This document shows positions 7,365 through 50,205 of a stretch of 64,000 bases of DNA, in pieces. This DNA comes from a virus (Duplodnaviria > Heunggongvirae > Uroviricota > Caudoviricetes), in the IMG/VR virus record IMGVR_UViG_3300028422_000701; one strand, 5' to 3'. The number at the start of each line of letters is the position of its first letter. Within the stretch, counting starts at the first letter, position 1. A program made the translations under genes and the position numbers. The notes under the pieces are model-generated. The model searched no databases and was not told the DNA's origin. It worked only from the letters and a program-made list of their open reading frames with translations.

Positions 7365-7393
7365 TTTACAATCTGATATTAATATGTTATAAT
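7365..7393 (+). promoter_or_regulatory. promoter TTTACA-N17-TATAAT
   Basis: tttaca 7365-7370, tgttataat 7385-7393. Confidence 0.5.
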
Positions 7394-7621: not shown

Positions 7622-8566
7622 ATGAATAAATATTTAAGTTTAGTACGTTACCCAAAAGATTTAGCAATAGATGCATTAAGTAGTTTTGACGAAATTACTG
7701 TTACTGAAAAAGTAGATGGGTCTAATGCAAGTTTTAAATTGAACAAAGATGGAGAAATTAAATGCTATAGTAGAACTATGGAATTAAAAGGTGAAAACGG
7801 ATTAAATGGTTTCAAACAGTGGGTGTTAAGTAATGTTAAAAAGGAAGATTTAATTCCTAATATTATTTATTTTGGTGAGTGGTTAACAAGACACAAGGTA
7901 GTTTATCCTGAGGAATGTTATAATAAGTTTTACTTATTTGACTTATATGATGAGGTAAGAAACATTTATATAAATCCTTTTAGCGTAACTAGTGTTATTA
8001 ACTTGGTACAACAAACAGAAGGAATGAAGTTTGCTCCTTGTTTATATGCAGGAAAGAACCAACCAATTAGTTTCCTTAAAGAGTTATTAAGTGAAAGTAA
8101 ATTAAGGGAAGGTATACCTGAAGGAATAGTTATTAAGGATTACGACTATAGAAATATTCATAAAGAACTAGTAATAGTTAAGTGGCTTAATGAAGAGTTT
8201 CAAGAGTTTACACCACAAAAACAACCAAAAGTAATAAAAGAATTAACAACTGAAGAGGATATAATGAACGTTTGGTGTTTAAGCACTGTCACACAAAATA
8301 GAGTTGATAAATCAATTTTAAAATTACAGGATGACAATATACTTGAACCAAAGTTGATTATAGACCACATGAAAGACTATATTAATTTAGTAAATAAATA
8401 TGTTTATGAAGATGTAGTTAAGGAAGAATTAGAAGGATTTTTAAGTGAAAACAAAACTATTATCACTGAAGAAGAAGTTCTAAAGTGGTTAGGTAAGTTT
8501 GTAAGTTCACACGTACCAAGAATGATTAAATATTATATTGGTACATTAAACAAAGAAGGAGAATAA
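7622..8566 (+). CDS. ATP-dependent RNA ligase, Rnl2-like
   Basis: nucleotidyltransferase motif I TEKVDGSN; motif IV EGIVIKDYD; RBS gaggagg before ATG 7622. Confidence 0.6.
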   Translation: MNKYLSLVRYPKDLAIDALSSFDEITVTEKVDGSNASFKLNKDGEIKCYSRTMELKGENGLNGFKQWVLSNVKKEDLIPNIIYFGEWLTRHKVVYPEECYNKFYLFDLYDEVRNIYINPFSVTSVINLVQQTEGMKFAPCLYAGKNQPISFLKELLSESKLREGIPEGIVIKDYDYRNIHKELVIVKWLNEEFQEFTPQKQPKVIKELTTEEDIMNVWCLSTVTQNRVDKSILKLQDDNILEPKLIIDHMKDYINLVNKYVYEDVVKEELEGFLSENKTIITEEEVLKWLGKFVSSHVPRMIKYYIGTLNKEGE

Positions 8567-8567
8567 T

Positions 8568-8996
8568 ATGAAAAAAGTTAAGTTAATTTATAATTGGAAA
8601 CATAATAATACAGTATACAAGGCATGGGATAAGATATATATTAGTTTAGAAGGTATTTTAAAGGATATGAATCTTGAAGATGAAAAAGTCGCTGACCTTT
8701 ACATAGCCTTATTAAAAGGTGAAGGTAAATGTACTTTTGAAGGAGTAAATATTGAAAAAATAATTGATACTACTAAAACAAGTACAAGTTCAGATACTAC
8801 GGTAAACCTTTTTAATAGTTTCCAAGATGCAGTTAAATTTATGACAAGTTTTAAAAAACAATATGGAGATAACTTTTTGTATACAAACTTTACTGATATT
8901 AAATATGATAAGGCATATCGTTTAGAAAATAAAAATAAGGATGCTGTTGAATCATTAGTATTACAAGATGTAACAGTTGCTTGTTTAAAAAAATAA
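8568..8996 (+). CDS. hypothetical protein
   Basis: ORF with RBS. Confidence 0.4.
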   Translation: MKKVKLIYNWKHNNTVYKAWDKIYISLEGILKDMNLEDEKVADLYIALLKGEGKCTFEGVNIEKIIDTTKTSTSSDTTVNLFNSFQDAVKFMTSFKKQYGDNFLYTNFTDIKYDKAYRLENKNKDAVESLVLQDVTVACLKK

Positions 8997-8997
8997 G

Positions 8998-10149
8998 ATG
9001 AATAAATATCGTAAACAATTTTTAAACGAAGTACATAATGATTTTAAAGGGGTTTATAAACATTTATGTGAATTAGAAAAGGATGGGTATATTAATATAA
9101 AACAACATGATACCTATCCTAATCTTAAACTTTTTAATTATACCGACCTATGTACATTTGAAAGGAAATGGGACTACTATACACTTAATTGTAGGGGTTT
9201 AGTACTTGACACAGACAAACAAGAAATTGTAGCCCTACCTTTTTTAAAATTCTTTAATTATAATGAATTTGATTCAGAACTTTGTAAACCACAAAATGAC
9301 AATTATGAAGTTTATGAAAAAGTTGATGGTAGTTTAGGTATTGGTTTTTGGTATAATGATAAGGTAATGTGGGCAACACGTGGTAGTTTCACAAGTACCC
9401 AAGCAATCAAAGCACAAGAAATGTGGGACAAAGAAGAACGTGATTACTGTGGTTACGGCTCTACTTTACTTGCAGAAATTGTATACCCTGAGAATAGAAT
9501 TATTATTGACTATGGTAAGTACGAGGGTTTAAAACTATTACAACAAATAGATAATAAAACAGGAAATGAATGCAGTTACGAAAGGTTATTAGAACTTAGA
9601 GATTATACTAACATTGACATAGCTAACAAAGAAGAAATAAACAGTATTGAACAACTTATTGAAAATATAAATAAATATAAAGGTACTGAAAGGGAAGGTT
9701 ATGTTTTAAAGTTTAAAGATTGTACTAGGTTAAAAATAAAGAACAAAGAATACTTAAATATTAATAGATTGGTATTTGGTATTAGTGATAGAAGTTTAAC
9801 CGAAAACTGGAGAGATGGTAAAGCTGAAGACTATTTAAGCTTAATACCTGAAGAGTTTACCGAGAGTATAAAAGAAAAGTTTCAGTTACTTGACAGTGCC
9901 TTATTATATTGGAAACTAGAAGTAGCAAGTGCAGTTAGGTTTATAAATCACTTTCATATTGAAAGAAAAAATGTACAAAAAGAATTAAGGACAATGTTTG
10001 ACCCAATAACTATTAATTGTGTGTTTGAACATTTTAAATGGCAAGAAACTTGTAATACAGTTTACACATATCCCTTACAAGATGCAGTTAACAAACTGTT
10101 AAGGGAACATATATATCGTAACTATAGAGAATATATTAAGGGGGAATAA
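8998..10149 (+). CDS. ATP-dependent RNA ligase, T4 Rnl1-like
   Basis: motif I EKVDGSLG (T4 RnlA has KEDGSL); motif IV EGYVLKF; motif V LKIKNKEY. Confidence 0.55.
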   Translation: MNKYRKQFLNEVHNDFKGVYKHLCELEKDGYINIKQHDTYPNLKLFNYTDLCTFERKWDYYTLNCRGLVLDTDKQEIVALPFLKFFNYNEFDSELCKPQNDNYEVYEKVDGSLGIGFWYNDKVMWATRGSFTSTQAIKAQEMWDKEERDYCGYGSTLLAEIVYPENRIIIDYGKYEGLKLLQQIDNKTGNECSYERLLELRDYTNIDIANKEEINSIEQLIENINKYKGTEREGYVLKFKDCTRLKIKNKEYLNINRLVFGISDRSLTENWRDGKAEDYLSLIPEEFTESIKEKFQLLDSALLYWKLEVASAVRFINHFHIERKNVQKELRTMFDPITINCVFEHFKWQETCNTVYTYPLQDAVNKLLREHIYRNYREYIKGE

Positions 10150-10151
10150 TT

Positions 10152-10406
10152 ATGTTTACGTTTTATTTAATTGGTTTTTATCTTTTCTTATTTGTAATGT
10201 TTATTGTAAATATTGCTTTAATAAAAGACATTAAATCATTAATTAATAACATATGTAACACAACAAGTTCACTTAATAACCAAGCTTCAAAATTAATGAT
10301 AGGGGTAATAATTTTTACAGGGTTATTATCCTTTGACATTATTTTTAGTGCTATGTGGTTCTTAGTTATAACTCTTTTGTTAATTATAACTATGAACAAT
10401 AAGTAA
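10152..10406 (+). CDS. small membrane protein
   Basis: three hydrophobic segments. Confidence 0.35.
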   Translation: MFTFYLIGFYLFLFVMFIVNIALIKDIKSLINNICNTTSSLNNQASKLMIGVIIFTGLLSFDIIFSAMWFLVITLLLIITMNNK

Positions 10407-10473
10407 TAATTGTACTACTATAAATGATTAAATACAATTATAAAATAACATACTATTTGTAGGAGGAAAGAAA

Positions 10474-12519
10474 ATGAGAAATATAGAGGAATCACAAAAG
10501 GATTTCCAAGATAGATACACCAATATTGTAAAAGATATTGAAAGTATAGCATTAAACGATGCTAAAAATGAAGACAAAAAAAGAGAAAATGGAAACATAA
10601 ATGGTGACAGTGCTATGGGTACTATGTTACAATTTGGAAGTACAGTTGGAAGGGAATTTACTAAAAGTTATTTAATGAATCCCTTGTATAGTAAACTACA
10701 TGATGAAGGTTTAATACATATTCATGATATGGATTTTTATCCTGAGGGTACAACAACTTGTATGCAAATAGATCTTGAAAAATTATTTAAGGAAGGTTTC
10801 AATACAGGGCATGGTTATTTAAGAACACCTAACGACATTATGTCTTATGGTGCTTTAACTGCTATTGCAATACAGGCTAATCAAAATGACCAACACGGAG
10901 GACAAAGTATACCATTTTTAGATTACTATTTAGCTCCTGGCGTATTGAAAACATTTAAAAAACAATATAAACAAACGTATGTTGATATGGCGGATGCTTT
11001 AGGGATTAATGAAGATGAAATTCATAGTGTTATAACATACATAAATAGTTTAAATAGTTTAAAAGAAGCTAAAGAAAATAGTGTTAAATTAACTGATAAT
11101 ATCTTAGTTATGGCTTATGATAAAGCGTTACAAAAAACGGAACGCATTACCTACCAAGCAATGGAAGCGTTAGTTCATAACTTAAATACTTTACACAGTA
11201 GAGCAGGTGCACAAGTACCGTTTAGCAGTGTTAATTTTGGTACAGACATAAGTGATGAGGGAAGAATGGTAGTAAGATCTTTCTTACTGGCAACTGATAA
11301 AGGTTTAGGTAAAGGTGAAACACCTATATTCCCAATATCAATATTTAGGGTAAAAGAAGGAGTTAACTATAATCCAACTGATCCTAATTATGATTTATTT
11401 AAACTAGCTTGTAAAGTTTCAGCTAAAAGGTTATTTCCAAACTTTGTGTTTCAAGATGCTCCATTTAATATGCAATATTATAACCCTAATGACTATAGAA
11501 CAGAAATTGCTACTATGGGATGTCGTACAAGAGTTATGGGGAATGTATGTGGTGAAAGTACAACTCCGGGACGTGGTAATTTAAGTTTTACAACAATTAA
11601 CTTAGTACGTCTAGGAATAGAACACGGTCTAGTTTCAGGTACTGTACAGAAACCTGATTTAGAAGGATTTTATAAAGACTTATTTACTTTAATGGATATA
11701 GTTAAAGAACAACTACTTGAACGTTATAGATGGCAATGTCAAAAACATAAATACAATTTTCCATTTTTAATTAATGAAGGTGTGTGGTATGGTGGGGAAA
11801 GATTAAATAACGATGACCAACTTGATAATGTATTAAAAACAGGAACATTAAGTATTGGATTTATTGGACTTGCTGAATGTTTAGTAGCATTAACTGGTTA
11901 CCACCACGGAGAAAATAATGAAAGTTATAAACTAGGTTATGACATAGTTAAAGAAATGCGTGTTAGATGTGACTATTATTGTAAACAATATGGTCTTAAT
12001 TTTAGTTTACTTGCAACACCAGCAGAAGGTTTAAGTGGTAGATTTACACGTATTGATGCTAAAAAGTATGGTAAAATCATAGGTGTAACTGATAGGGATT
12101 ATTACACAAATAGTTTCCACATTCCAGTTTACTATAATATTTCAGTAACTGACAAAATTCAGTTAGAGGCTCCATTTCATGAACTAACAAATGCTGGTCA
12201 TATTACTTATATAGAACTTGATGGGGATACTTGTAAAAATGTGGATGCATTTGAGAGTGTTATACGTACTATGAAGGAAGCAGGTATTGGTTATGGTGCC
12301 ATAAACCATCCAGTTGATAGAGATCCAGTTTGTGGGTTTAACGGTATTATAGATGATGTTTGTCCACAATGTGGTAGGTCAGAAGGTTCACATAAATTTG
12401 AGCGTATAAGACGTATTACTGGATATTTAGTTGGGACACTTGATCGTTTTAACGATGGTAAACGTGCTGAAGAACACGATAGAGTTAAACATAATTTAAA
12501 AGATAAAGAGGAGAATTAA
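10474..12519 (+). CDS. nrdD: anaerobic ribonucleoside-triphosphate reductase (class III)
   Basis: 681 aa; C-terminal glycyl-radical motif RIRRITGYL and CPQCG zinc ribbon. Confidence 0.85.
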   Translation: MRNIEESQKDFQDRYTNIVKDIESIALNDAKNEDKKRENGNINGDSAMGTMLQFGSTVGREFTKSYLMNPLYSKLHDEGLIHIHDMDFYPEGTTTCMQIDLEKLFKEGFNTGHGYLRTPNDIMSYGALTAIAIQANQNDQHGGQSIPFLDYYLAPGVLKTFKKQYKQTYVDMADALGINEDEIHSVITYINSLNSLKEAKENSVKLTDNILVMAYDKALQKTERITYQAMEALVHNLNTLHSRAGAQVPFSSVNFGTDISDEGRMVVRSFLLATDKGLGKGETPIFPISIFRVKEGVNYNPTDPNYDLFKLACKVSAKRLFPNFVFQDAPFNMQYYNPNDYRTEIATMGCRTRVMGNVCGESTTPGRGNLSFTTINLVRLGIEHGLVSGTVQKPDLEGFYKDLFTLMDIVKEQLLERYRWQCQKHKYNFPFLINEGVWYGGERLNNDDQLDNVLKTGTLSIGFIGLAECLVALTGYHHGENNESYKLGYDIVKEMRVRCDYYCKQYGLNFSLLATPAEGLSGRFTRIDAKKYGKIIGVTDRDYYTNSFHIPVYYNISVTDKIQLEAPFHELTNAGHITYIELDGDTCKNVDAFESVIRTMKEAGIGYGAINHPVDRDPVCGFNGIIDDVCPQCGRSEGSHKFERIRRITGYLVGTLDRFNDGKRAEEHDRVKHNLKDKEEN

Positions 12520-12520
12520 T

Positions 12521-12931
12521 ATGAATAAAAATACACAAATGCACGAAGATATAACTACTAATTTACATAAAATATATGTAGCTAAGAATCATGATTATGG
12601 TAATAGTGTACATGATACATATGAAAAATACGGTTTAGTTTCATTTTTAGTAAGAATGGAAGATAAAATAAGTAGAGCAAGAACTTTAGACCAAAAGAAG
12701 GAACAATATGTTTCAGACGAAAAGTTGGAGGATACTTTACTTGACTTAGCTAATTATGCTATAATGGCAGTAATGGAATTAAGATTGGCTAAAGAACAAC
12801 TAACACAAGAGGATTGTGTTGAAGAAAATACCAGTTATTTTGTAGAAGGTTACACTGTTAAGGATAATCAAATTGTAAGTGTAAAAGATAATAAGGTTGT
12901 GGAAATAGATGAAACTAAAATTAGCTGGTAA
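12521..12931 (+). CDS. hypothetical protein, possibly MazG-like all-alpha NTP pyrophosphohydrolase
   Basis: E/D-rich helical pattern RMEDKISRAR...LEDTLLDLANYA; position between nrdD and nrdG. Confidence 0.3.
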   Translation: MNKNTQMHEDITTNLHKIYVAKNHDYGNSVHDTYEKYGLVSFLVRMEDKISRARTLDQKKEQYVSDEKLEDTLLDLANYAIMAVMELRLAKEQLTQEDCVEENTSYFVEGYTVKDNQIVSVKDNKVVEIDETKISW

Positions 12932-13442
12932 TATAGTTTATGATAGTATAGTTGATGGTCCCGGACTACGTGCTACAATTTTTGTACAGGGTTGTACACA
13001 TAATTGTCCGGGTTGTCATAACCCTAGTACACACGACTTAAATGGTGGTACTGAGGTAGACATTAACGATATTATTAATGACTTAGAAAAGCATAAAAAA
13101 CAATTTAGTGGTGTTACTTTAAGTGGTGGGGAACCACTATTACAACAAGATAAATTAATACCTATTTGCTTGTGGTGTATAAATAATCATAAAGATATTT
13201 GGTTATACACAGGCTTTACATACGAAAAAGTAAATACATTAGAAATAATGGATTATATAGATATTGTAGTAGATGGACAGTTTATAGAAAAATACAAGTC
13301 ATATAATTGTTTATTTAAAGGAAGTACTAACCAACGTATAATAGACGTTAAACAAAGTAAAAAATTAAATGAAACATTTTTAAGTATTTACAATGATCAA
13401 CCTACAACTAGTGTAAAGAATAAAAACAATATTTTCATATAA
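12909..13442 (+). CDS. nrdG: anaerobic RNR activating protein (radical SAM)
   Basis: CTHNCPGCHN CxxxCxxC cluster. Confidence 0.8.
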   Translation: MKLKLAGNIVYDSIVDGPGLRATIFVQGCTHNCPGCHNPSTHDLNGGTEVDINDIINDLEKHKKQFSGVTLSGGEPLLQQDKLIPICLWCINNHKDIWLYTGFTYEKVNTLEIMDYIDIVVDGQFIEKYKSYNCLFKGSTNQRIIDVKQSKKLNETFLSIYNDQPTTSVKNKNNIFI

Positions 13443-13447
13443 TAATA

Positions 13448-13476
13448 TTGTTTTTCTCTTACCCTTATGTTATAAT
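13448..13476 (+). promoter_or_regulatory. promoter TTGTTT-N17-TATAAT
   Basis: ttgttt 13448-13453, tgttataat 13468-13476. Confidence 0.5.
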
Positions 13477-13499
13477 GGTATTGTAAAGGAGGGAAGGTC

Positions 13500-13919
13500 A
13501 TGAGTAGTAAACAAAAAACCCCTAAGCAAATAATGAAAACATTATGTAGTGAATTACATAAAAGAGGTTTTATAGTACAATACTATGAAGCTTATAGTAC
13601 GTGTAGTTGTTATATTAAATTAGATTACGGTGCCTGTTATAGTATAAGGGTAAGTGATCACGATGGTTTTAGCCATTTAAAATACCGTTATAATGTTATG
13701 AATGATATAGTAAATAATTACACCGTTTTAGACGAAGGTAAAGAAAGAAAATATTATGGATTTACAGAATTAAATGAATTAGTTAATGATATAGTAAACT
13801 GTAGAGAAAATTTAAAAATTATGATGGGTGAGACGGGGTATAAAGACTATATTAAATCTTATAAATTAAGTGCACAATGTAGTACTGGATTTTGGTCTCA
13901 GTGTCATTTATATAAGTAA
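13500..13919 (+). CDS. hypothetical protein
   Basis: ORF with RBS aaggaggg. Confidence 0.4.
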   Translation: MSSKQKTPKQIMKTLCSELHKRGFIVQYYEAYSTCSCYIKLDYGACYSIRVSDHDGFSHLKYRYNVMNDIVNNYTVLDEGKERKYYGFTELNELVNDIVNCRENLKIMMGETGYKDYIKSYKLSAQCSTGFWSQCHLYK

Positions 13920-13931
13920 AAGGAGAATAAA

Positions 13932-14882
13932 ATGAGTAAAGTAATAATGATGGTAGGGTTGCCTGGAAGTGGCAAAACAACATTTGCAAAAAATGTTTTA
14001 ATGAAAAAAGATAATTATATATATTTAAGTAGTGATGATTTACGTGTAGAATTATTTGGGTTTGAATACCAAACACGTAATGATGAATTATTTAAGGAAT
14101 TAGGTAGAAGATTAAAAGCTGCTATCGTTAATAAGCAAAATGTAATATATGATGCCACTAATATAAATAGAAAAAGAAGAATGGGGTTAATAAGAAATAT
14201 AAAACAATTAGATCCTAATGGTGAAGTTGAAGCATATTGTTTATGTATACCTTATGAATTTATACTTAATAGAAATTTAGTTAGAGAAGAACGTCATATA
14301 CCTGAAGATAAATTAGAACAAATGTATAGAGGTTTTAATGTACCTATAATGTCAGAGGGATTTAGTGATATTACGTTGTTAACTGTTACTGATACAATAA
14401 CTGCAAATGTGTTTAAAGGTTTTGTAGCGGAAACACAAGAAGGACGTTTACATTTAGACTTATTACCTTATTACAATGAATTAAAGGATTATGATCAAAA
14501 GAGTATTTATCATGATTTTACACTAGACAAACATATTGAAAATGTGTTTAATAGAACGTGTGAAATTAAAAATGTAAACGGTGCTTTATGTTTAGCAGCT
14601 GCTTTACATGATATTGGTAAACCTGACTGTTGCACTGTAAAGGAAGATGGTATACACCACGGTTTTGCAGGACATGAAAATGTAAGTGGGTATAAAGCAG
14701 CTATGTTATTAGGTAGATGCGATATATTAAGTAAAGAAACTAAAGATTTAGTTTTAACTATAATTAATTTACATATGATGATTAAAAATAGTGAAATTTC
14801 AGATGACACATTACTTGAATATTGTGGTAGTGAGGAATACCTAAACTATTTAAAAATGTTTAATAATTGTGACCAAAATTAA
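13932..14882 (+). CDS. P-loop polynucleotide kinase-like N-domain fused to HD phosphohydrolase domain (RNA-repair Pnkp-like)
   Basis: Walker A MVGLPGSGKTTFAKN; HD motif AALHDIGKP...HHGFAGHE. Confidence 0.55.
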   Translation: MSKVIMMVGLPGSGKTTFAKNVLMKKDNYIYLSSDDLRVELFGFEYQTRNDELFKELGRRLKAAIVNKQNVIYDATNINRKRRMGLIRNIKQLDPNGEVEAYCLCIPYEFILNRNLVREERHIPEDKLEQMYRGFNVPIMSEGFSDITLLTVTDTITANVFKGFVAETQEGRLHLDLLPYYNELKDYDQKSIYHDFTLDKHIENVFNRTCEIKNVNGALCLAAALHDIGKPDCCTVKEDGIHHGFAGHENVSGYKAAMLLGRCDILSKETKDLVLTIINLHMMIKNSEISDDTLLEYCGSEEYLNYLKMFNNCDQN

Positions 14883-14909
14883 AAAAGTTTAAAAATTTCA
14901 CAAAAAAGT

Positions 14910-14938
14910 ATTTACAAATCAGATCTTATATGTTATAA
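14910..14938 (+). promoter_or_regulatory. strong promoter TTTACA-N17-TATAAT (TG-extended) at the head of the 1-kb ORF-free region
   Basis: tttaca 14910-14915; tgttataat 14930-14938. Confidence 0.55.
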
Positions 14939-14944
14939 TATATA

Positions 14945-15855
14945 CATAAAGTTAATTAAGAGGAAAAAATGTATAAGCAAGCATTTATTAACTTTATACT
15001 GTATAAGCGCAAAAAGACCCCTGTTTTATAAACGTTACCTTTACAGGTAGCGCAAGAAATATAATTATTTTGATAATAATCGTATTTCTTGCAGTACTTG
15101 TAAAAGTACTATTTAGGTACAACCAGCAACAACATAGTAATTAACGATGGTTAATATTTGTCTTTATATCTTTACGATATCAGGACATATCGACACTGTG
15201 TAAAAGTAATTTTACACTTGTCAAAAGCATAAAGAGACTACGGTTTCTTTGTACATTTAAAACGTACCTAGCTATACATATACAAAACTTTAGATACATA
15301 CAGCAATTAAAAATAAAAAAAGAAAATGCCGAAATTTTTCAAAAATGTATCTAGTTAAGTTTAGTTTACTCAAATGTTGATTAGGGTCGATATGGGATTA
15401 AATGCTAGACTTAAAGACAACACTACCTTCGAATGAACTTAATACAAAGGCAAAGTTAATTCTTTGCTTCATGGGCATAATGTCTACTTAACTTGTAAAA
15501 ATGTACCCCAGCACCAGAGCCAAGTAATTGCGGTACATAGGTAGATTAACGAAGTATACATTAGTTAATGATAACAATAGTAATTTGAATTTTCCGGGAA
15601 TTCGAAAGTTTGGGAAACGGTTATTGTTTAAAGTTATACCCATGAAGGAAAGAATTAATTTCCAAAATTAGATACTTACAGCAACTTAAAAATTAGGTCG
15701 CCAAAACACGTATTTGACTAAATACACGTATCTAGATAGTTAAAAAGTATATAATTAGATTCTCACAGCAAACCAAAATAAAGGAAGAATTTGTAAATCT
15801 TAACCAAAAGAATCTAGCATTATATAAATAACTACCTACGGGTAGTTTTCTTTTC
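14945..15855 (+). ncRNA. candidate structured non-coding RNA locus (possible Y-RNA-like partner of the downstream Ro60-like gene)
   Basis: no ORF of 60 aa or more in about 1 kb; promoter at 5' end, hairpin plus T-run at 15831-15855; two perfect 7-bp hairpins with GTAA loops at 15093-15110 and 15199-15216. Confidence 0.3.
15831..15855 (+). terminator. rho-independent terminator
   Basis: aactacc-tacg-ggtagtt hairpin followed by ttcttttc. Confidence 0.5.
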
Positions 15856-15876
15856 AAATAAAAGGAGGAATAAATT

Positions 15877-17412
15877 ATGAATTTTGACAAAGCATTACAA
15901 GAAGAAACAAACGTAGCATTCACTGAAAATGGTGGAGCTAGTAACCTAAGTACGCTTGACAAATGTTTAGACCTGTTTGCACGTTGTGGTAGTATGAGAT
16001 CTGCAAAAGAACAAGATATTATTGAACTTGTAGATAGAGCATATGGTCAAAACAAACAACTTACTTTACTAATTTTATTTTACAACTGTGATATTAAAGA
16101 AGGTTTAGGTGAAAGACGTTTTACACAGATAGCACTTAAATACCTTGCAAACAAAGACCCTAATACGCTTACAAAAGTAGCTAGTTTACTACCTACATAT
16201 AACCGTTGGGACTTAATGTATTGTTTCGTTGGTACACAATTACAAAAAACAGTATTTGGTATAATGAAAGAACAATATGTTTCAGATTTGGACGCTTTAC
16301 AAAAAGATTCTGAAGCCAACATAAGTTTGATTGGTAAGTGGTTAAAAAGTGAAAATACTGAAAGTAAAATATCTCGTAAACTTGCACGTTTAACTATAGA
16401 AGAATTTGGGGTAACTGAAAGACAATATAGAAAAGCATTAGTAACTTTACGTAAAAGAATTAAGATTGTAGAACACAACTTAGTTAATAAAGAATACGCA
16501 AGTATTGATTATGATAAAATACCAGCCAAGGCTCTTATGAAGTATATTAAGGCATTTTATCGTAACGACGAAGCTAAGATAAAGGCTTACTTTGATAGTA
16601 TTGAACGTGGAGAAAAAGAAATTAAAGTTACAGGTATTTACCCACATGATATTTTATATCAAGCAACAGGTGGTGTAACTTGTGGAAATAGTTATTTAAA
16701 ACCTAGAAAAAGTGTTCCAAACCAAAACTACTATAATGAATTATGGAAAAACCAAAAAGATTATATGAAAGAAGATGATCTTACTATGGTTGTAGCTGAC
16801 ACTAGTGCCAGCATGACATCTCCAATTAGTATTAATTCGAATGTTTCAGCATTAGATGTTGCTATGGCATTGGGTATTTATTGTAGTGAAAGATTAAAAG
16901 GACAATACACTAACAAAATGATTACGTTTAGTTCAAGACCTAGTTATGTAACACTAACAGGTGAAGATTTACTAAGTAAACTTAGATGTGTTCCTAGTAT
17001 TGTAGATAACACTAATCTTGTAGCTGTATTTAAACTTTTACTTGACACTGCTAAAAGTTATAACATAGACGAAAAGGAATTTCCTAAAAAGTTACTTATT
17101 ATAAGTGACATGGAATTTGATGCGTCTACCGAAACACGTTATGGTAATAAAAGAACTACTGTGTTTAGAGACATAAAAAATATGTTTGATGGTACAGGGT
17201 ACAAAATGCCACAAATAGTGTTCTGGAATGTTAATAGTAGAAATACACAATTTCCTATAACTGTAAATGACGAAGGGGCAGTACTTATAAGTGGGTATAG
17301 TCCAGTAGCATTAAAGGCAGTATATGAAAGTGAAATATTTACTCCTGTTGATGTTATGATAAAAGCAGTTACAGCACCACGTTACTACCAAGTAATAGAA
17401 AAGTTAAAGTAA
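15877..17412 (+). CDS. Ro60-like protein (TROVE-like N-region plus C-terminal vWA domain with MIDAS)
   Basis: 511 aa; C-terminal vWA with DTSASM (DxSxS) MIDAS motif; N-terminal helical repeat region. Confidence 0.5.
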   Translation: MNFDKALQEETNVAFTENGGASNLSTLDKCLDLFARCGSMRSAKEQDIIELVDRAYGQNKQLTLLILFYNCDIKEGLGERRFTQIALKYLANKDPNTLTKVASLLPTYNRWDLMYCFVGTQLQKTVFGIMKEQYVSDLDALQKDSEANISLIGKWLKSENTESKISRKLARLTIEEFGVTERQYRKALVTLRKRIKIVEHNLVNKEYASIDYDKIPAKALMKYIKAFYRNDEAKIKAYFDSIERGEKEIKVTGIYPHDILYQATGGVTCGNSYLKPRKSVPNQNYYNELWKNQKDYMKEDDLTMVVADTSASMTSPISINSNVSALDVAMALGIYCSERLKGQYTNKMITFSSRPSYVTLTGEDLLSKLRCVPSIVDNTNLVAVFKLLLDTAKSYNIDEKEFPKKLLIISDMEFDASTETRYGNKRTTVFRDIKNMFDGTGYKMPQIVFWNVNSRNTQFPITVNDEGAVLISGYSPVALKAVYESEIFTPVDVMIKAVTAPRYYQVIEKLK

Positions 17413-17417
17413 ATAAA

Positions 17418-17441
17418 ACTCACATAATGTGAGTTTTTTTG
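17418..17441 (+). terminator. rho-independent terminator
   Basis: actcacat/atgtgagt hairpin followed by T7. Confidence 0.6.
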
Positions 17442-17491
17442 TTTACTTTTAAGTAAAAATATGGTATAATATATACATAAGGAGAGTTAAT

Positions 17492-17917
17492 ATGGAAAAT
17501 AATGTAATAGACTCATTTAGTGGTGAGTATGAATTTTTAAGTAATTTTTATGTTAGAGAAATGACCTTTAGAGGTTTAAAATGTACAAGTTCAGAATCGG
17601 CATTTCAGGCTATGAAAACAACCAACTTAGAACAAAGGAAAGAAATTGCTGCTGCTTTACCTTCAAGATCTAAAAGACTTGGTAGAAAAGTACAACTAAG
17701 AAATGATTGGGATTATATAAAAACAAATGTTATGTATGAAATAGTTTTGGCTAAGTTTACACAACATCCTGATTTAAAACAAAAGTTATTAGACACAGGT
17801 GATGCTAAGTTAGTTGAAGGTAATACTTGGGGAGACCAATTTTGGGGTGTTTGCGACGGTGTAGGACAAAATGAACTCGGTAAAATATTAATGTGGGTGA
17901 GGTTTGAATTATCATGA
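17492..17917 (+). CDS. NADAR (YbiA/DUF1768) domain protein
   Basis: FLSNFY...SSESAFQAMK signature of the NADAR fold. Confidence 0.6.
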   Translation: MENNVIDSFSGEYEFLSNFYVREMTFRGLKCTSSESAFQAMKTTNLEQRKEIAAALPSRSKRLGRKVQLRNDWDYIKTNVMYEIVLAKFTQHPDLKQKLLDTGDAKLVEGNTWGDQFWGVCDGVGQNELGKILMWVRFELS

Positions 17918-18714
17918 TAGGACAAAAATCATTAATTAATTATATAGATAATATGAAAGAACTGCCTAAGTGTATTTTATTACAAGGTATTAGGGGTTCT
18001 GACACACATAGTGTGGCTAATTATATTAAAGATAAATACCCTAACCATCAACTTGGTATTATAGACACGTTAGATGTTGAAACATTTAAGTTAATAAATA
18101 TCGAAGCAGAACAAACAATAACACCATTAATAATTTATATTGATAACTTAGATTTAAGTAGTGTACAATGTCAAAATATTGTTTTAAAAGAACTTGAAAC
18201 AGAAAACAATTTAGTTCATTTTATACTTGGTTGTTCAAATAAGGAAAACATAATTAGCACAATAGTTACTAGAAGTGTTACTTTAAAAATGTTACCTTAT
18301 ACTAAACAAGATATGGAACTATACAAAATTAAATACCATATTAAAAATAATATTGATTTAAGTATTATTGAGACACCAAAAGAATTACAGTATTGTGATA
18401 CTATTTACGATAAAATGGAAACAGTTATAAATACAGCTAATGCTTTAGTTTCAAAGTTACCAATAGTAAATACAAGTAACGCTTTAAAAGTTACTAAAAT
18501 TATACTTGACTTAGACACTAACCCAATGTTAATTACTATCTTTACTCACATATTACAAAAAGAAATTATGGGTAGTGATTACTTTTCAACAGGTCAAAAA
18601 ATAAAAATGGAATATATGTTGGAACGTACATTACAGGAGTTAAATAATAATATAATAACACCTAGTAGTGCTTTAGACACCCTTATAATTAATTTAACAT
18701 ATACCATTATGTAA
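17914..18714 (+). CDS. hypothetical protein, possibly degenerate clamp-loader (delta-prime-like) subunit
   Basis: weak AAA-like pattern LLQGIRG and NIVLKELE sensor-like segment. Confidence 0.3.
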   Translation: MIGQKSLINYIDNMKELPKCILLQGIRGSDTHSVANYIKDKYPNHQLGIIDTLDVETFKLINIEAEQTITPLIIYIDNLDLSSVQCQNIVLKELETENNLVHFILGCSNKENIISTIVTRSVTLKMLPYTKQDMELYKIKYHIKNNIDLSIIETPKELQYCDTIYDKMETVINTANALVSKLPIVNTSNALKVTKIILDLDTNPMLITIFTHILQKEIMGSDYFSTGQKIKMEYMLERTLQELNNNIITPSSALDTLIINLTYTIM

Positions 18715-18726
18715 AGGAGGATATTT

Positions 18727-19521
18727 ATGTTATATATAGGAGACAAATCATATTTTAAAAGTAAATATCCTAATTTACAGGAAGTAACTAGTTGTATACA
18801 AATAACAACTAATCAATTAAACTTGTTTAGTACTAACAATAATGAACTTTTATATTGTGGTGATGACATACTTAATGTTGAACCACAAGAAATAAAAGGT
18901 AGTATATGTTTGTTAACAATTGATAAAAGAAGTAAACTATATAAATATTTTAGTAAATTAAATAAAGTAGAATGCGAACCTGAAGTAACTGACCAATTAG
19001 TTAACAACATCTTTCCGGGGGCTAATACTAATTTATTTAAAGGTATTTCATATAGTAGTTTATTAAAAATTAAAACACAATACGATTTAATAAATAACCC
19101 AACAGTAAATGATTTAAAATGGTTAGTAAGTAACACAAACACTGACTGTATATTTGAATGTATTGAACAATTGCTTAATAAGAATGTAGGATTTTTTACA
19201 TTATACAATTATTTAATTGGTTGTGGTGAAAGTAAGTTTAAAATACTTGTAATGGTTAAAAAACGTGTACAACAATTAATACAGGTTTATAACTACAAAA
19301 ATGCGGATATAAACGAGATTGTTAGTAAAACAGGTATAAACTACTATGGGGTTAAGAACTCCCTTGTATTGGTGTTTAAATACAATTTAGTAGAGCTTAT
19401 TACTATATATAATAAGTGTAACAATGTAGAAGTTGGAATTAAGGAAGGTTTATATAGTGAACTAATAGATATAGACAACTTATTTATTAGTATCTTCCAT
19501 AAGGAAAATATATATGAATAG
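18727..19521 (+). CDS. hypothetical protein
   Basis: ORF with RBS aaggagg. Confidence 0.35.
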   Translation: MLYIGDKSYFKSKYPNLQEVTSCIQITTNQLNLFSTNNNELLYCGDDILNVEPQEIKGSICLLTIDKRSKLYKYFSKLNKVECEPEVTDQLVNNIFPGANTNLFKGISYSSLLKIKTQYDLINNPTVNDLKWLVSNTNTDCIFECIEQLLNKNVGFFTLYNYLIGCGESKFKILVMVKKRVQQLIQVYNYKNADINEIVSKTGINYYGVKNSLVLVFKYNLVELITIYNKCNNVEVGIKEGLYSELIDIDNLFISIFHKENIYE

Positions 19522-19541
19522 AAAGAATAAAGGTGGTAAAA

Positions 19542-20711
19542 ATGAATGATGCAATAAGTGTAATTACCAAATTAAAAGAAAAAGGTTTTGAAGCCTATTT
19601 AGTAGGTGGGTGTGTAAGAGATTACATACTTGATAAAGTCCCAAATGATTATGATATTTGTACTAATGCTTCACCTAGTGACATGATGCGAATATTTAAT
19701 TATGAACTTACAAATGGAATTGAATATGGTTGTGTAACAATACTTGAAGGTAGTTCTAAAATACAGGTTACTACATACAGAACTGAACAATACAATGGTG
19801 TTAATAGGTCACCTAGTGTTAGGTATAGTAGAGATGTTAAAGAAGATGTAATTCGTCGTGACTTTACAATTAATGGTTTGTTACAAGATGAAAACTTAAA
19901 TATTATAGACTATGTAGGTGGTGTACACGATTTAGTGTATGAAACAATTAAGTTTGTAGGTGACCCAAGAGAAAGAATTATGGAAGATCCTTTAAGAATA
20001 CTACGAGCAATAAGATTTAGTTGTACCCTTAATTTCACTATCGATCCAGACCATTTTATCATAATGAAAGAATTAAGAAATGAATTAAGTAGAGTAAGTG
20101 CTGAAAGGATACAATATGAATTAAATAAGATGTTTAGTTGTAACAATGTTAAACGTGCTATTTATTTATTAAAGGTACTTGGTTATGATTTTTATGGTTT
20201 ACCTATAAAGGACTGTTTTAACTATGTTACTAATGGAGATTACTTAATGCAACTTGCACATATAAATCATAGTTATTTATATAAAGTAAGTGACGTACTA
20301 AATAGTTTGAAATATACAAAAAGTGAAATTGCTATTGTAATTATGTACATTATGTGTTATAATAATATTGTTAATTCCAGTAACTTGGATGTAACCATAA
20401 AGGAAATAATTAATGAATATGGGGAAACTAATTTTTTAAAGGTTTGCGAATATATACGTAATTGTAATCAACCATTATATATAAATGTTTACTTTAGATA
20501 CAAAAATATTTTAAACAGAAAAGAAGCTTGTACTATTAAGGATTTAAAAATAAATGGGGAAGATTTAATTAAGCTTGATGTACCTGAACACAAACGTGCT
20601 AGGGTATTAAATTATTGTTTAGAAACAATACACGAGTTTCCAGTATTAAATACAAAACCAATGTTAAAAAGTATTATAAAAGACTTTTTACAAGAAGATT
20701 ATTTTGAATAA
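19542..20711 (+). CDS. cca: tRNA nucleotidyltransferase (CCA-adding enzyme)
   Basis: LVGGCVRDYIL and DYDICT head-domain motifs; ATG 19542 after aaggtgg RBS. Confidence 0.7.
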   Translation: MNDAISVITKLKEKGFEAYLVGGCVRDYILDKVPNDYDICTNASPSDMMRIFNYELTNGIEYGCVTILEGSSKIQVTTYRTEQYNGVNRSPSVRYSRDVKEDVIRRDFTINGLLQDENLNIIDYVGGVHDLVYETIKFVGDPRERIMEDPLRILRAIRFSCTLNFTIDPDHFIIMKELRNELSRVSAERIQYELNKMFSCNNVKRAIYLLKVLGYDFYGLPIKDCFNYVTNGDYLMQLAHINHSYLYKVSDVLNSLKYTKSEIAIVIMYIMCYNNIVNSSNLDVTIKEIINEYGETNFLKVCEYIRNCNQPLYINVYFRYKNILNRKEACTIKDLKINGEDLIKLDVPEHKRARVLNYCLETIHEFPVLNTKPMLKSIIKDFLQEDYFE

Positions 20712-20727: not shown

Positions 20728-21528
20728 ATGAAATACTTTGTAGTAAGTGACATACACGGACATTTTAAGGAATTAAAGTATTACTTATACAAGGCAGGGT
20801 ATAGATACAAAAACCCTAAACATAAGATTATTGTATGTGGTGATATATTTGATAGGGGTAATGAGTCTTTAGAAGTACTTACCTATGTTAGAAGGTTACA
20901 ACGTAAAGATAAACTTATACTTGTAAGAGGTAACCACGAAAATTATTTTCAAATGTTCTTAGAAGGTGCAAGCATTGCATGGCATTGGTTTAATAATGGT
21001 TTTTACAAAACAGTTAATAGTTTAACAGGTTATGCAGACCATTTTAAGAGTACTATGGAATTATGGGAAAATAACCAAAGTGTTGAAGCTAATAATGTAA
21101 CTTACGATACTTACTTGAAGTATGAAAATTGGGTACGCGGTGATTTAACATCATACTACCATTGGTTATTACCTTGGTTACAACAATTACCTGATTATTA
21201 CGAAACAGAACACTATATATTTACCCACGCAGGTATTGACACAAATACTTATGATTATAGAACTCCAACTAGTAAAAGTTGGTTTGAATTACAACAAGAT
21301 GATGGAAGTTTCTTTAATAAAAGTATTTGTAATACTGAAAAAACTGTTGTTATTGGACATTTTGCAACAGACAGGTTACGTGATATGTATAATATACCTT
21401 TAACTAACACCACTAATGACATATTAGTTAGGGAAGATAAAAAGGTAATTGCTATTGATACCTGTACAATATTAACAAAAAGAATAAATGTTTTAATTAT
21501 AGAAGAAGAAGGAGAAGACAAACAATGA
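20728..21528 (+). CDS. Ser/Thr protein phosphatase-family metallophosphoesterase
   Basis: SDIHGH, GDIFDRG, GNHE motifs. Confidence 0.65.
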   Translation: MKYFVVSDIHGHFKELKYYLYKAGYRYKNPKHKIIVCGDIFDRGNESLEVLTYVRRLQRKDKLILVRGNHENYFQMFLEGASIAWHWFNNGFYKTVNSLTGYADHFKSTMELWENNQSVEANNVTYDTYLKYENWVRGDLTSYYHWLLPWLQQLPDYYETEHYIFTHAGIDTNTYDYRTPTSKSWFELQQDDGSFFNKSICNTEKTVVIGHFATDRLRDMYNIPLTNTTNDILVREDKKVIAIDTCTILTKRINVLIIEEEGEDKQ

Positions 21529-48114: not shown

Positions 48115-48191
48115 TGGTGCTCCCGATAGGACTCGAACCTACAAGACCTTGTTTCTAAGACAAGGATGTTTACCAGTTTCATCACAGGAGC
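48115..48191 (-). tRNA. tRNA with anticodon UAG (Leu anticodon) but class-I (short variable arm) shape
   Basis: acceptor GCTCCTG/CGGGAGC plus A plus CCA; anticodon arm CCTTGT-CTTAGAA-ACAAGG; T-arm GTAGG-TTCGAGT-CCTAT. Confidence 0.55.
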
Positions 48192-48196
48192 ATATT

Positions 48197-48276
48197 TGGA
48201 GACCTAAGTAGGATTCGAACCTACGACATATACCAGATTTGCAGTCTGGCGCCTTAAACCACTTGGCTATTAAGTC
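48197..48276 (-). tRNA. tRNA-Cys(GCA)
   Basis: acceptor GACTTAA/TTAGGTC; anticodon loop CTGCAAA; CCA encoded. Confidence 0.7.
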
Positions 48277-48281
48277 ATATA

Positions 48282-48373
48282 TGGCGTCGAGTACTAGATT
48301 CGAACTAGTGGATCCCCTAAAGGATCGACGGTTTAGCAAACCGTTGGTTTAAGCCATGCTCACCCAACTCGAC
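48282..48373 (-). tRNA. tRNA-Ser(GCU)
   Basis: acceptor GTCGAGT/ACTCGAC; loop TTGCTAA; long variable arm. Confidence 0.7.
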
Positions 48374-48474
48374 ATGAAGTGTAAGGTACGTACTTTTGAA
48401 AGGTTGTTTCCCTATGTCTTAGGTAGAGCCTTACGTACACTAAGACGTATATGTAGATAATAAGTATACAATTT

Positions 48475-48550
48475 TGGTTGTCCCTGAAGGATTCGAACCT
48501 CCACATTACGGGTTCAAGGCCCGCTATCTTACCAATTTGATCAAGGGACA
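48475..48550 (-). tRNA. tRNA-Gln(UUG)
   Basis: acceptor TGTCCCT/AGGGACA; loop CCTTGAA. Confidence 0.7.
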
Positions 48551-48556
48551 ATACTA

Positions 48557-48631
48557 TGGTGTTCCCGATAGGATTCGGACCTATGTAATACGCTTTAGAA
48601 GAGCGTTGCCTATCCACTAGACTACGAGAAC
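48557..48631 (-). tRNA. tRNA-Arg(UCU)
   Basis: acceptor GTTCTCG/CGGGAAC; loop CTTCTAA. Confidence 0.7.
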
Positions 48632-48869
48632 ATAATGGCGCACGATTTCTACACTGGAATACGTGCCTAAGTGTTCGTATCAACTGCTTACCTATAAAAC
48701 TTCGAATTAATACAGGTGCCTTCAACGTAGTATAACTGGTACTAACCCTTGAGGCTTATACAACCCAATCTATATTTGCGTAGTATAGAAACGACTTCCT
48801 ATGGTTCACCGGAAGTTAGGTTACTCTATTTCATACTAAATATACCACTATTTAGTAAAATATTTTTAA

Positions 48870-48946
48870 TGGCGGTTCGTACGGGAGTCGAACCCGTTTG
48901 CTAACTCGCTGACAACGAGGTGTCCTAACCATTAGACCTACGAACC
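48870..48946 (-). tRNA. tRNA-Asp(GUC)
   Basis: acceptor GGTTCGT/ACGAACC; loop TTGTCAG. Confidence 0.7.
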
Positions 48947-49343
48947 ATTAAAGGGCTGGAAGATGAGGAATCGAACCCCAAGCAAATCTTTATTATACTA
49001 TATATTTACTGCAGTACTATATAGTTTTTATTATATTCAAACACTTTCTAAAGCTGACGCTATCCATTTGTCTTATCTTCCAATATAAAAATGGTGAGGG
49101 GTATAAAGGAGTCGAACCTTTATTTACACCGTACATAGCCAACCCGTCAGTTGGAATTGTTACCACAAGGCAACAACCTTCCCCGTCAACCCCATATAAG
49201 TGGCACACAGTGTAAGAATCGAACTTACCCAGTCGGTTTTGGAGACCAACTCGCCATCCTTGGAACATTCCCATGCATATAAATATATCGTAACCCCGTG
49301 TTTTAATTGCTTTCTGCACACGATACTGACCAGCAATAATAAA

Positions 49344-49431
49344 TGGTGCTCCCCGCGAGACTCGAACTCGCACGCCCACAACGGGCATAGGATTTTAAGT
49401 CCTACGTGTCTACCAATTCCACCAGGAGAGC
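49344..49431 (-). tRNA. tRNA-Leu(UAA)
   Basis: acceptor GCTCTCC/GGGGAGC; loop CTTAAAA; long variable arm. Confidence 0.7.
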
Positions 49432-49604
49432 ATGAAGACTTTTTTACACTACTAGGTAAAGTCAAACCCCGTATGTTTTGGATCCACGACCTGCTTATGT
49501 AAACATACAAACAATATTAACTTGCTGGCGAACTTTTACTAGTTAACAAATAAAAGCTGGTTCAGAACTTTTAGTACGGTATTTTCTCACCGTTAATTTT
49601 TATA

Positions 49605-49680
<76 letters not shown>

Positions 49681-49691
49681 AAGTTAGGTAA

Positions 49692-49982
49692 TTACTTACC
49701 TAAGTGTTGATCAAGTTTGTTTGCTATTTCTTGTAATTTTGGCATTATTTTTAAATATTTACGTGCATTAAATGTTGCAAATACATAAATACCTTTATCT
49801 ATTAAATTACAATAATATACGTTACCCATATTTACCATATCAGACATACTTGAAGTGTCATATAAATCATATCTGTCTATAACTCCACGTTCAACTTTCG
49901 ATATTAGGAACATTGCATCCATATATTGTTTAGCATCGGGCATATTATCAAACCTTTTAATTAAGGTTAACCATTTTGCCAT
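49692..49982 (-). CDS. hypothetical protein embedded in the tRNA array
   Basis: 96-aa ORF with RBS aggagg. Confidence 0.4.
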   Translation of the reverse strand: MAKWLTLIKRFDNMPDAKQYMDAMFLISKVERGVIDRYDLYDTSSMSDMVNMGNVYYCNLIDKGIYVFATFNARKYLKIMPKLQEIANKLDQHLGK

Positions 49983-50055
49983 AAATACCTCCTTATTACC
50001 CCTATTAAGAAACTACGGTAGGTTAGTTTCTTAATACGAGTAACAAAATAATAAA

Positions 50056-50131: not shown

Positions 50132-50205
50132 AAATATAAGTTGTTTAATTAACTTATACATATATTATAACATACAACGTACTAAAAGTAAATATTAAAG
50201 TATGA

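Follow-up and report, generated by a model that had tools for sequence, protein, structure and literature searches.

In a 64,000-nucleotide stretch of viral DNA (IMG/VR record IMGVR_UViG_3300028422_000701, referred to below as the window), the block of genes around positions 7622-20711 was analysed. It is fairly probable that this interval brings together, as neighbours, a T4-style set of enzymes for healing and sealing RNA ends and a self-contained locus for a Ro60-like ribonucleoprotein (RNP). The window is a large, AT-rich (30 % G+C), phage-like genome, and the interval lies in its early/metabolic region. An annotation made earlier from the letters of the sequence (the original prediction) had listed RNA-repair enzymes and a Ro60-like protein here. 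The most distinctive feature of the interval is a cluster of structured RNAs, absent from that prediction, in the 1-kb non-coding gap 14883-15876 between the stop codon of the gene for a kinase-HD protein (14882) and the start of the Ro60-like gene (15877).

An RNA cluster upstream of the Ro60-like gene

The gap contains no + strand open reading frame (ORF) of 50 amino acids (aa) or more in the ORF listing, and a 906-nucleotide (nt) stretch of it folds with a z-score of -8.6. The motif TTAGRTAC-NNN-CAGCAA is present there in four copies and, with up to 2 mismatches allowed, is otherwise missing from the 64 kb. Downstream of each heptamer lies a complementary GTRYCTA sequence, with a compensatory change in one copy (TAGATTC/GAATCTA). 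The RNA unit comprises a 7-bp stem enclosing the conserved ACAGCAA strand and a variable body, and the units sit 60-760 nt upstream of the Ro60-like gene on the same strand. The elements of the locus are listed below (scores refer to the covariance model R2 described in a later section; promoter and terminators are consensus matches only).

14911..14939, + strand: sigma-70-like promoter with which the cluster begins (TTTACA-17-TATAAT with TG; 11 of 12 consensus positions)
15113..15272, + strand: RNA unit A, stem TAGGTAC/GTACCTA and CCAGCAA, with a 134-nt insert of four hairpins; fold z = -5.9
15289..15355, + strand: RNA unit B, stem TAGATAC/GTATCTA and ACAGCAA; R2 47.3 bits, E 2e-8
15357..15666, + strand: further structured RNA of 310 nt between units B and C, without the stem/ACAGCAA motif
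15667..15737, + strand: RNA unit C, stem TAGATAC/GTATCTA and ACAGCAA; R2 39 bits, E 1.6e-6
15754..15820, + strand: RNA unit D, stem TAGATTC/GAATCTA (compensatory) and ACAGCAA; R2 40.9 bits, E 6e-7
15830..15847, + strand: terminator-like hairpin, after unit D and before the Ro60-like gene's ribosome-binding site
15877..17412, + strand: Ro60-fold protein (Pfam DUF2828 and DUF7788), a HEAT-repeat ring and a vWA domain with an intact MIDAS motif (an adhesion site dependent on metal ions)
17415..17437, + strand: strong terminator-like hairpin, 10-bp stem and T run, closing the unit of RNAs and Ro60-like gene

Unit A was missed by the covariance models because of its large insert. The 310-nt RNA contains a long stem formed by 15453-15480 and 15634-15661 (inverted repeat I2, 28-nt arms, 89 % complementary) and folds with z between -2.9 and -4.2. 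Rfam scans with gathering and E-value thresholds, run on the window, the gap, 19 related loci and the phages Tourach and VpaE1, returned tRNA-type matches or noise only: no Y RNA, GOLLD/ROOL, ribozyme or riboswitch was found, and the 310-nt RNA had no match. No homologue of the 5' leader, the insert of unit A or the 310-nt RNA was present in 1.7 Mb of related loci.

The RNA cluster and the Ro60-like gene look like a transcription unit of their own in the window: the promoter would be followed by about 900 nt of structured RNA, a leaky terminator would separate this RNA from the Ro60-fold gene, and a strong terminator would come last. Only two promoter-like sites of the extended -10 type matching 11 of 12 positions occur in 7000-21600, the one at the head of the cluster and another at 7365-7393.

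A 20-codon ORF, MYKQAFINFILYKRKKTPVL, with a good AAGAGGA ribosome-binding site lies right after the promoter-like site, at the 5' end of the presumed non-coding transcript (14969-15031, + strand); it could encode a leader peptide or a small protein, or be due to chance.

The Ro60-fold protein

The AlphaFold2 (AF2) model of the Ro60-like protein, built with 34 homologues, has a pLDDT of 88.8 and a pTM of 0.90. Its four best Foldseek matches in the PDB are all Ro60 structures (human, Xenopus and Thermus phage phiLo), aligned over the full length with probability 1.00, E 9e-9 to 9e-6, about 550 aligned columns, TM 0.45-0.58 and 13-14 % identity. The MIDAS residues D308, S310, S312, T379 and D411 are invariant in the 34 homologues, and the protein matches phrog_850 ('RNA-binding protein'). 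The label Ro60-like given in the original prediction is thus right at the level of the fold.

The DUF2828 Ro-like family is large, with more than 5,500 protein clusters and 709 phage records, among them mycobacteriophages, Felixounaviruses, phages of Listeria, Staphylococcus, Enterococcus, Campylobacter and Vibrio, and Tsamsa-like phages of Bacillus. The Ro60-like label for this family is not new: it has already been used in mycobacteriophage annotation, where the homologue gp54 of Tourach (32 % identity, E 3e-79) is named 'Ro-like RNA binding protein'.

The RNA family in other phages

The shared motif was found in a 610-nt non-coding gap with its own promoter upstream of the DUF2828 gene of Bacillus phage Tsamsa. 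In 80 IMG/VR loci obtained via protein alignment, it occurred about 110 times on the strand of the gene and about 7 times on the other. The stem was examined at all 520 N7-N3-CAGCAA sites that the DUF2828 loci have on the strand of the gene, with the heptamer unrestricted. An exact Watson-Crick complement of the heptamer was present 15-100 nt downstream at 133 of these sites, with 60 distinct heptamers, as against 3.6 (maximum 9) for swapped heptamers, 5 on the upstream side and 2 of 217 on the opposite strand; these controls rule out chance complementarity. Covariation was seen at 6 of the 7 stem pairs in an alignment of 45 units, the rows of which were picked for a perfect stem, so that the count over 520 sites is the fair test.

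The first covariance model gave 110 hits at E <= 0.001 in 69 loci, every one on the gene strand. The second model, R2, was built from those hits alone with the window sequences excluded, and it hits the 64-kb window exactly three times (units B, D and C), always in the gap, with E from 2e-8 to 2e-6. By a strict definition, a unit is present in 71 of the 80 metagenomic phage loci. Among 302 units, 118 lie within 500 nt before the start codon and 37 just after the stop codon, with almost none inside the gene. In the reciprocal direction, a scan of IMG/VR with the 15-mer AGACACATACAGCAA alone yielded 120 loci, 30 of which contain a DUF2828 homologue, and the motif and the gene share a strand in 32 of 32 pairs. 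The motif was also considered as a general genome repeat or promoter, and this was rejected since it is confined to the gap within 64 kb and strand-locked to the gene in other phages.

Units are found in further cultured phages. Mycobacterium phage Tourach has a 378-nt unannotated gap after its Ro-like gene with three tandem units, minimal, permuted tRNA-like and minimal, followed by a terminator (L205:5400-5810). In Enterococcus phage VRE9_2 the units adjoin the DUF2828 gene, and in Felixounavirus VpaE1 weaker matches lie in the tRNA array after the gene. No description of the stem/ACAGCAA family was found in Rfam or in the literature searched, with the limit that the mycobacteriophage RNAs of the permuted form described below may overlap RNAs reported in 2014 (Chen et al.).

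Anatomy of the units and tRNA mimicry

The constant part, the 7-bp helix followed by NNN-CAGCAA on its 5' strand, occurs in three connectivities. Form (i) comprises minimal RNAs of 60-70 nt in which the two ends make the helix. In form (ii), of 110-130 nt, the open helix surrounds a hairpin, a T arm, an acceptor-like hairpin and a D arm (L045:4668-4781, L075:2792-2907 and, in Tourach, L205:5524-5649), the permuted tRNA order that has been described for YrlA (PMC4201824, PMC12135203). Form (iii), of 115-140 nt, has open acceptor ends and normal acceptor, D and T arms; its helix, capped by a short loop, emerges from the anticodon stem on the 5' side. Both ARAGORN and Rfam call form (iii) RNAs 'tRNAs' with insertions. 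An anticodon-arm-like hairpin (at least 4 bp and a 7-nt YU-NNN-R-N loop) was detected in 46 of 110 units as against 6.3 (maximum 12) in shuffled sequences, UUU being the commonest 'anticodon'. The tRNA-like domain present in relatives is absent or unrecognisable in units A-D of the window, where unit A closes a domain of four hairpins.

Tandem 115-140-nt 'tRNAs with introns' were observed within 600 nt of the DUF2828 gene in L008-L011, L017, L021, L026-L030, L048-L057 and others. Their ARAGORN anticodons are inconsistent, the stem/ACAGCAA (or ACUGCAA) branch is closed, and the anticodon hairpin often bears GUU or UUU.

Form (iii) invites the view that the module interrupts the anticodon stem of genuine tRNAs in the manner of an intron; an endonuclease would remove it and the kinase-HD protein and the ligases would rejoin the tRNA halves, the free-standing units being degenerate or excised copies. 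We hold this to be very improbable. The 115-140-nt tRNA calls with insertions of 30-70 nt do lie beside the gene in most loci, the remainder of L010:1863-1980 is a regular cloverleaf with a 7-nt anticodon loop, and the enzymes for healing and sealing are similar to their counterparts in the yeast tRNA-splicing ligase. However, free-standing units have promoters of their own and lack tRNA exons, the permuted forms close the acceptor stem by a loop and cannot be charged, and a splicing endonuclease was not identified. Moreover, most loci with interrupted tRNAs are without repair enzymes, and the window is without an interrupted tRNA bearing the module.

The positions of the units raise a different possibility, namely that they act in cis, either as RNase processing signals in polycistronic transcripts of tRNAs and small RNAs (sRNAs) or as an operator in the 5' untranslated region for the Ro60-like protein or another regulator. 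Units are found most often 70-200 nt upstream of the start codon, in the window a terminator-like hairpin stands between unit D and the ribosome-binding site close by, and units are also present between tRNA genes. Against this stand the many units, among them many of form (i), whose own -10/-35 boxes set the start at the first base of the stem, and the occurrence of several copies per locus, downstream as well as upstream. Units are also grafted on complete tRNA-like bodies, with two permuted topologies, an arrangement not easily reconciled with an operator or a cleavage signal. A cis-acting role is, in our opinion, unlikely.

The stem/ACAGCAA RNAs are probably Y-RNA-like ligands of the Ro60-fold protein. 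Ro60 proteins bind adjacent Y RNAs by way of the stem at the RNA's end and the conserved strand that lies immediately within it (PMC4201824, PMC12135203), and so these RNAs are most simply the partners. The stem and ACAGCAA would then be the protein-binding module, analogous to the stem with GNCGAA or GGUCCGA in known Y RNAs, and the variable body would act as a tRNA mimic in the related phages. In the weakest step of this proposal, the particle would probably gate or tether host RNA-processing enzymes or tRNA-directed defence factors.

Enzymes for a proposed healing and sealing of RNA ends

All the ORFs listed in the original prediction are present on the + strand at the coordinates claimed. 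The enzymes concerned here are:

7622..8566, + strand: Rnl2-like ATP-dependent RNA ligase, the ORF being open from the GTG at 7607
8998..10149, + strand: Rnl1-like RNA ligase, motif I KVDGSL
13932..14882, + strand: polynucleotide 5'-kinase (N-terminal P-loop kinase) with a C-terminal HD (HDIG-type) phosphohydrolase
19533..20711, + strand: class II CCA-adding-type tRNA nucleotidyltransferase without an HD domain of its own
20728..21528, + strand: calcineurin-like metallophosphoesterase of the lambda-PPase/ApaH/PrpE/bacterial-Pnkp clade, beside the CCA gene and absent from the original prediction

The Rnl2-like ligase scores 76 bits with Pfam RNA_ligase (PF09414, cutoff 27), matches phrog_548 over its full length and has the motif I KVDGSN in the context TEKVDGSNASF. 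A word-indexed search with this protein returned 3 sequences only, and as a single-sequence query it had no match in the PDB. The best PDB match of the four-sequence family profile was T4 Rnl2 (2hvq; residues 2-296 against 4-325, E 4e-7), in an alignment that spans both the nucleotidyltransferase (NTase) and the Rnl2-type C-terminal domain; Naegleria Rnl5 ranked behind and was matched over the NTase domain only. The Rnl1-like ligase, which contains YEKVDGSLGIGF, scores 76 bits with Pfam RNA_lig_T4_1 (PF09511, cutoff 28) and aligns to the T4 Rnl1 structures (2c5u/5tt6) with E 2e-13, the motif I lysine, EGYV and KIK being in register; its score with the TIGR02308 equivalog is 68.6 bits, below the cutoff of 242. 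The family hidden Markov models and the PDB alignments thus agree with both predicted ligase identities, and the context of the lysine-adenylate motif is kept in both proteins.

The sequence neighbours of the kinase-HD protein are PSTK, Pnkp1, T4 Pnk and bacterial Pnkp. Its AF2 model (pLDDT 91) has its best fold matches in the Clostridium thermocellum Pnkp kinase and T4 Pnk, with a root-mean-square deviation of 2.4-2.8 A. Among 30 homologues the residues G9, G14, K15, D35, R38, R118 and R121 of the kinase half are invariant, which includes the 5'-OH site (Asp35/Arg38) and the lid arginines, as are the HD metal ligands H201, H226-D227, H248, H281 and D314. An HAD (DxDxT) 3'-phosphatase domain was not found in the protein, the C-terminal half of which is HD/HDIG, and a PDB sequence search with this half alone gave nothing useful. 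Domain, sequence and fold matches therefore bear out the predicted fusion of a P-loop kinase to an HD domain instead of the HAD phosphatase of T4. The alternative of a deoxynucleoside monophosphate kinase was ruled out, as both sequence and fold group with polynucleotide 5'-kinases.

The CCA-type enzyme matches the PolyA_pol head with 108 bits as well as the RNA-binding domains, and the motifs GGxVRD...DxD, RRDxTxN and EDPxRxLR are readable in its sequence. The predicted CCA-adding type is in keeping with the PolyA_pol match, which points to class II, and the ORF starts at 19533. Judged from its sequence the enzyme may have CCA-adding, A-adding or poly(A) activity, which are indistinguishable here. 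The metallophosphoesterase matches phrog_8238 (in its middle part), positions 184-300 of TIGR04075 (E 3e-12) and PDB 4j6o, and is a candidate for an additional enzyme of 3'-end healing.

With these identities upheld, the ligase motif context kept and the dNMP-kinase alternative discarded, a role of the enzyme set in the healing and sealing of tRNA or other RNA ends may reasonably be inferred. By family membership, the kinase domain would add phosphate to 5'-OH ends, and 2',3'-cyclic or 3' phosphates would be taken off by the HD domain and perhaps by the metallophosphoesterase as well. Broken tRNA loops would be the substrate of the Rnl1-like ligase and nicked duplex RNA that of the Rnl2-like ligase, and the CCA enzyme would restore the 3' ends of tRNAs.

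The original prediction had regarded the combination of a kinase-HD protein with two ligases as unusual. The same set is, in fact, present in the cultured Bacillus phage Sophrita and the kinase-HD protein is common: its full-length form was found in 37 phage records, and over 1,600 protein clusters contain it, bacterial ones included. In Sophrita, the Rnl1-like gp164 (33 % identity to the ligase of the window, E 1e-49) and the kinase-HD protein gp165 (30 % identity over the full length, E 1e-39) are encoded by genes overlapping by 4 nt (L207:4091-6249), and the Rnl2-like gp171 is located 3 kb downstream of this pair; the counterparts of gp164 and gp165 in the window are 3.8 kb apart. The overlap suggests translational coupling of the sealing and healing enzymes.

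The enzyme set and the proposed RNP locus as neighbours

Repair enzymes were found within 3 kb of the Ro60-like gene only twice around 85 other Ro60-like genes. As the repair-gene neighbourhood is not conserved around such genes, the two parts are not one conserved operon, and the repair enzymes and the Ro60-like particle would seem to happen to be neighbours in the window.

It may even be that the genes of the block are unrelated: the ligases and the kinase-HD protein could serve nucleic-acid metabolism or virion assembly (cf. T4 Rnl1/gp63), the NADAR protein encoded downstream of the Ro60-like gene could reverse ADP-ribosylation, and the Ro60-like particle could have an anti-defence function with no link to repair. 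This is possible but rather doubtful. Besides the scarcity of repair enzymes near other Ro60-like genes, it draws on the NrdD/G and clamp-loader genes that interleave the block, the annotation of phrog_562 as a tail-fibre attachment catalyst, an NCBIfam model that ties NADAR to anti-phage systems, and a homologue in phage Bas63 that counters a PHP-domain (probably DNA-directed) defence (10.1101/2024.10.10.617714). On the other hand, the overlap of the Rnl1-like and kinase-HD genes in Sophrita argues that at least those two act together, bacterial Ro60 genes belong to RtcB RNA-repair operons (PMC7790460, PMC4201824), and a CCA enzyme, two ligases, a kinase-phosphoesterase and 25 tRNAs are here encoded by one genome.

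Apart from the missing conservation of the neighbourhood, several findings weigh against the combination of an end-healing set with a Ro60-Y RNP locus that we favour. On the side of the RNP, the protein has no match to Pfam TROVE (a scan at E <= 0.01 gives only DUF7788, DUF2828 and VWA_2), the conserved ACAGCAA differs from the known Ro60-binding motif, units B-D of the window are AT-rich and without a clear tRNA-like or anticodon-arm body, and unit A and the 310-nt middle RNA are without homologues in related loci. On the side of the enzymes, the CCA-type protein reaches 242 bits with the NF009814 equivalog, just under the cutoff of 290, the phosphate substrate of the HD domain is presumed from family membership, and a protein phosphatase or an Ap4A hydrolase would be an equally plausible identity for the metallophosphoesterase.

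Other features of the block and of the window

The genes from about 4.9 kb to 23 kb form an unbroken + strand run in the ORF listing. The original prediction had placed the repair genes in one + strand block; the strand is right, and they are not contiguous, since NrdD/NrdG, DUF1599 and clamp-loader genes interrupt them. A megablast search of the block against 50,697 phage records gave no match, i.e. no relative at the nucleotide level, and a close relative was not found by a single-protein locus search of IMG/VR. Further features are:

323-1174, + strand: SPFH/Band-7 protein (Pfam, 124 bits)
1846-3042: AAA ATPase, after the SPFH/Band-7 gene
4880-6583: PcfJ-like protein, after the AAA ATPase gene
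7365..7393, + strand: sigma-70-like promoter upstream of the ligase genes, a consensus match only (TTTACA-17-TATAAT with TG, agreeing at 11 of 12 positions)
8568..8996, + strand: 142-aa ORF between the two ligase genes, without a significant Pfam or PHROG match
12521-12931, + strand: DUF1599 ('nucleotide modification associated domain 1') protein, between NrdD and NrdG and overlapping the NrdG start
17492..17917, + strand: NADAR-domain protein (PF08719, 100 bits, cutoff 35), resembling T4 gp30.3
48115..54207, - strand: array of 25 tRNA genes
50206-50742, - strand: thymidine kinase gene in the middle of the tRNA array

The NADAR assignment of the original prediction stands, with the Pfam domain well above threshold. 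The 142-aa ORF has no homologue among the Ro-like loci. SPFH proteins have been proposed as RNA-repair scaffolds paired with tRNA-like RNA; no such RNA was found beside the SPFH/Band-7 gene, where the gaps are filled by small ORFs.

ARAGORN and Rfam agree on 25 tRNA genes, where about 28 had been expected. No stem/ACAGCAA units were found in this array. It includes two odd tRNA-like genes on the - strand, one at 52841-52941 (101 nt, called Met(CAT), with an 'anticodon loop' of about 13 nt, a long variable arm and an encoded CCA) and one at 52671-52753 (83 nt, called Val(TAC)), and the ACAGCAA module is not present in either. A 1,748-aa ORF (54427-59673, - strand) adjoins the array.

Relation to known systems and significance

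The genes for Ro60 and Y RNAs stand side by side on the same strand (PMC4201824), Y-like RNAs encoded nearby and the PNPase of the host are both bound by a phage Ro60 (PMC12135203), and tRNA mimicry is known for the Y RNAs of bacteria as well as of phages (PMC4201824, PMC12135203). Like the Ro60-Y RNPs described (Rsr with YrlA/Yrn1, phiLo Ro60 with Yrl1/Yrl2), the locus in the window combines a protein with the fold of a HEAT ring and a vWA/MIDAS domain with same-strand RNAs within a few hundred nt of the gene (the criterion for YrlA-type RNAs is about 4 kb) that have a terminal stem with a conserved strand just inside, and some units of its relatives carry T-arm/acceptor/D-arm tRNA-like domains in permuted order, as YrlA does. 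The protein, however, is DUF2828/DUF7788 and not TROVE, with the low identity to solved Ro60s given above. Unlike known Y RNAs, the units have ACAGCAA instead of GNCGAA(N)G or GGUCCGA, exist in a minimal 60-70-nt and a tRNA-embedded form and have no Rfam model, and binding is here predicted. As far as sequences can tell, what sets the RNA family apart from the described Y RNAs is therefore its motif, its protein clade and the existence of minimal and tRNA-embedded forms.

Bas63 gp130, a Ro60-like protein next to tRNA genes, counters the Ppl defence, and its authors guessed that some of the neighbouring 'tRNAs' may be Y RNAs (10.1101/2024.10.10.617714). This is the only phenotype in the literature for such a protein. 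Bas63 gp130 is Ro60-like by structure and directly upstream of a tRNA array, a layout shared by the VpaE1 homologue (31 % identity to the protein of the window); Bas63 is thus likened to the window via VpaE1 and its description only. In contrast to Bas63, the window has its tRNA array on the opposite strand at a distance of 30 kb, and its RNAs are free-standing units.

Combinations of Rnl1, Rnl2, kinase, phosphoesterase, CCA enzyme, NADAR and Rot/TROVE proteins in large phages have been reviewed (PMC7824862), and the enzyme toolkit is one more example of phage RNA repair. With T4 Pnkp and Rnl1 (and Rnl2) it has in common the kinase fold, P-loop and catalytic Asp/Arg included, and ligases of the Rnl1 and Rnl2 families; it differs in that an HD domain replaces the HAD/DxDxT phosphatase for 3'-end healing and in ligases that are below the equivalog thresholds. 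It resembles Sophrita (Joanripponvirinae) in its Rnl1-like, kinase-HD and Rnl2-like proteins, and the Tsamsa group in a DUF2828 gene preceded by stem/ACAGCAA units, there after a tRNA array. Unlike in the Sophrita/Tsamsa group, where the Ro-like gene follows the tRNA array, the gene order is another one, and the identity is 30-37 % only. The joining of a 5'-kinase to a metal-dependent phosphoesterase recalls HD-Pnk of Runella slithyformis, whose domain order is opposite to the kinase-then-HD order of the window, and bacterial Pnkp, whose phosphoesterase module is matched by the metallophosphoesterase; in contrast to bacterial Pnkp, the phosphoesterase and the ligase are encoded by separate genes in the window.

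Taken more broadly, and as a tentative proposal that we would not consider likely in its full extent, DUF2828 Ro60-like proteins and stem/ACAGCAA RNAs might constitute a widespread undescribed class of phage Y RNPs, distributed over Firmicute, Actinobacterial, Enterobacterial and many uncultured phages. One module would be attached in three circularly permuted ways to mimics of tRNAs or anticodon arms, the loops of which are often Lys-UUU or Asn-GUU-like, and the particle might be a decoy, a sensor or a repair platform against host defences that target tRNA, working here alongside the adjacent kinase-HD protein, the ligases and the CCA enzyme.

For a common and functionally opaque protein family, annotated only as 'RNA-binding' or 'Ro-like', the RNAs described here provide concrete, testable candidate ligands with a stem and a 7-nt strand that can be mutated. 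Experiments are feasible since gene and RNAs occur together in cultured phages, namely Tsamsa, Tourach, VRE9_2 and, with weak matches, those like Felix O1; the Tourach gap is a compact, experimentally tractable example. Many of the 115-140-nt 'intron-containing tRNAs' in phage genomes, which automatic annotation would count as ordinary or intron tRNAs, may be Y-like tRNA mimics.

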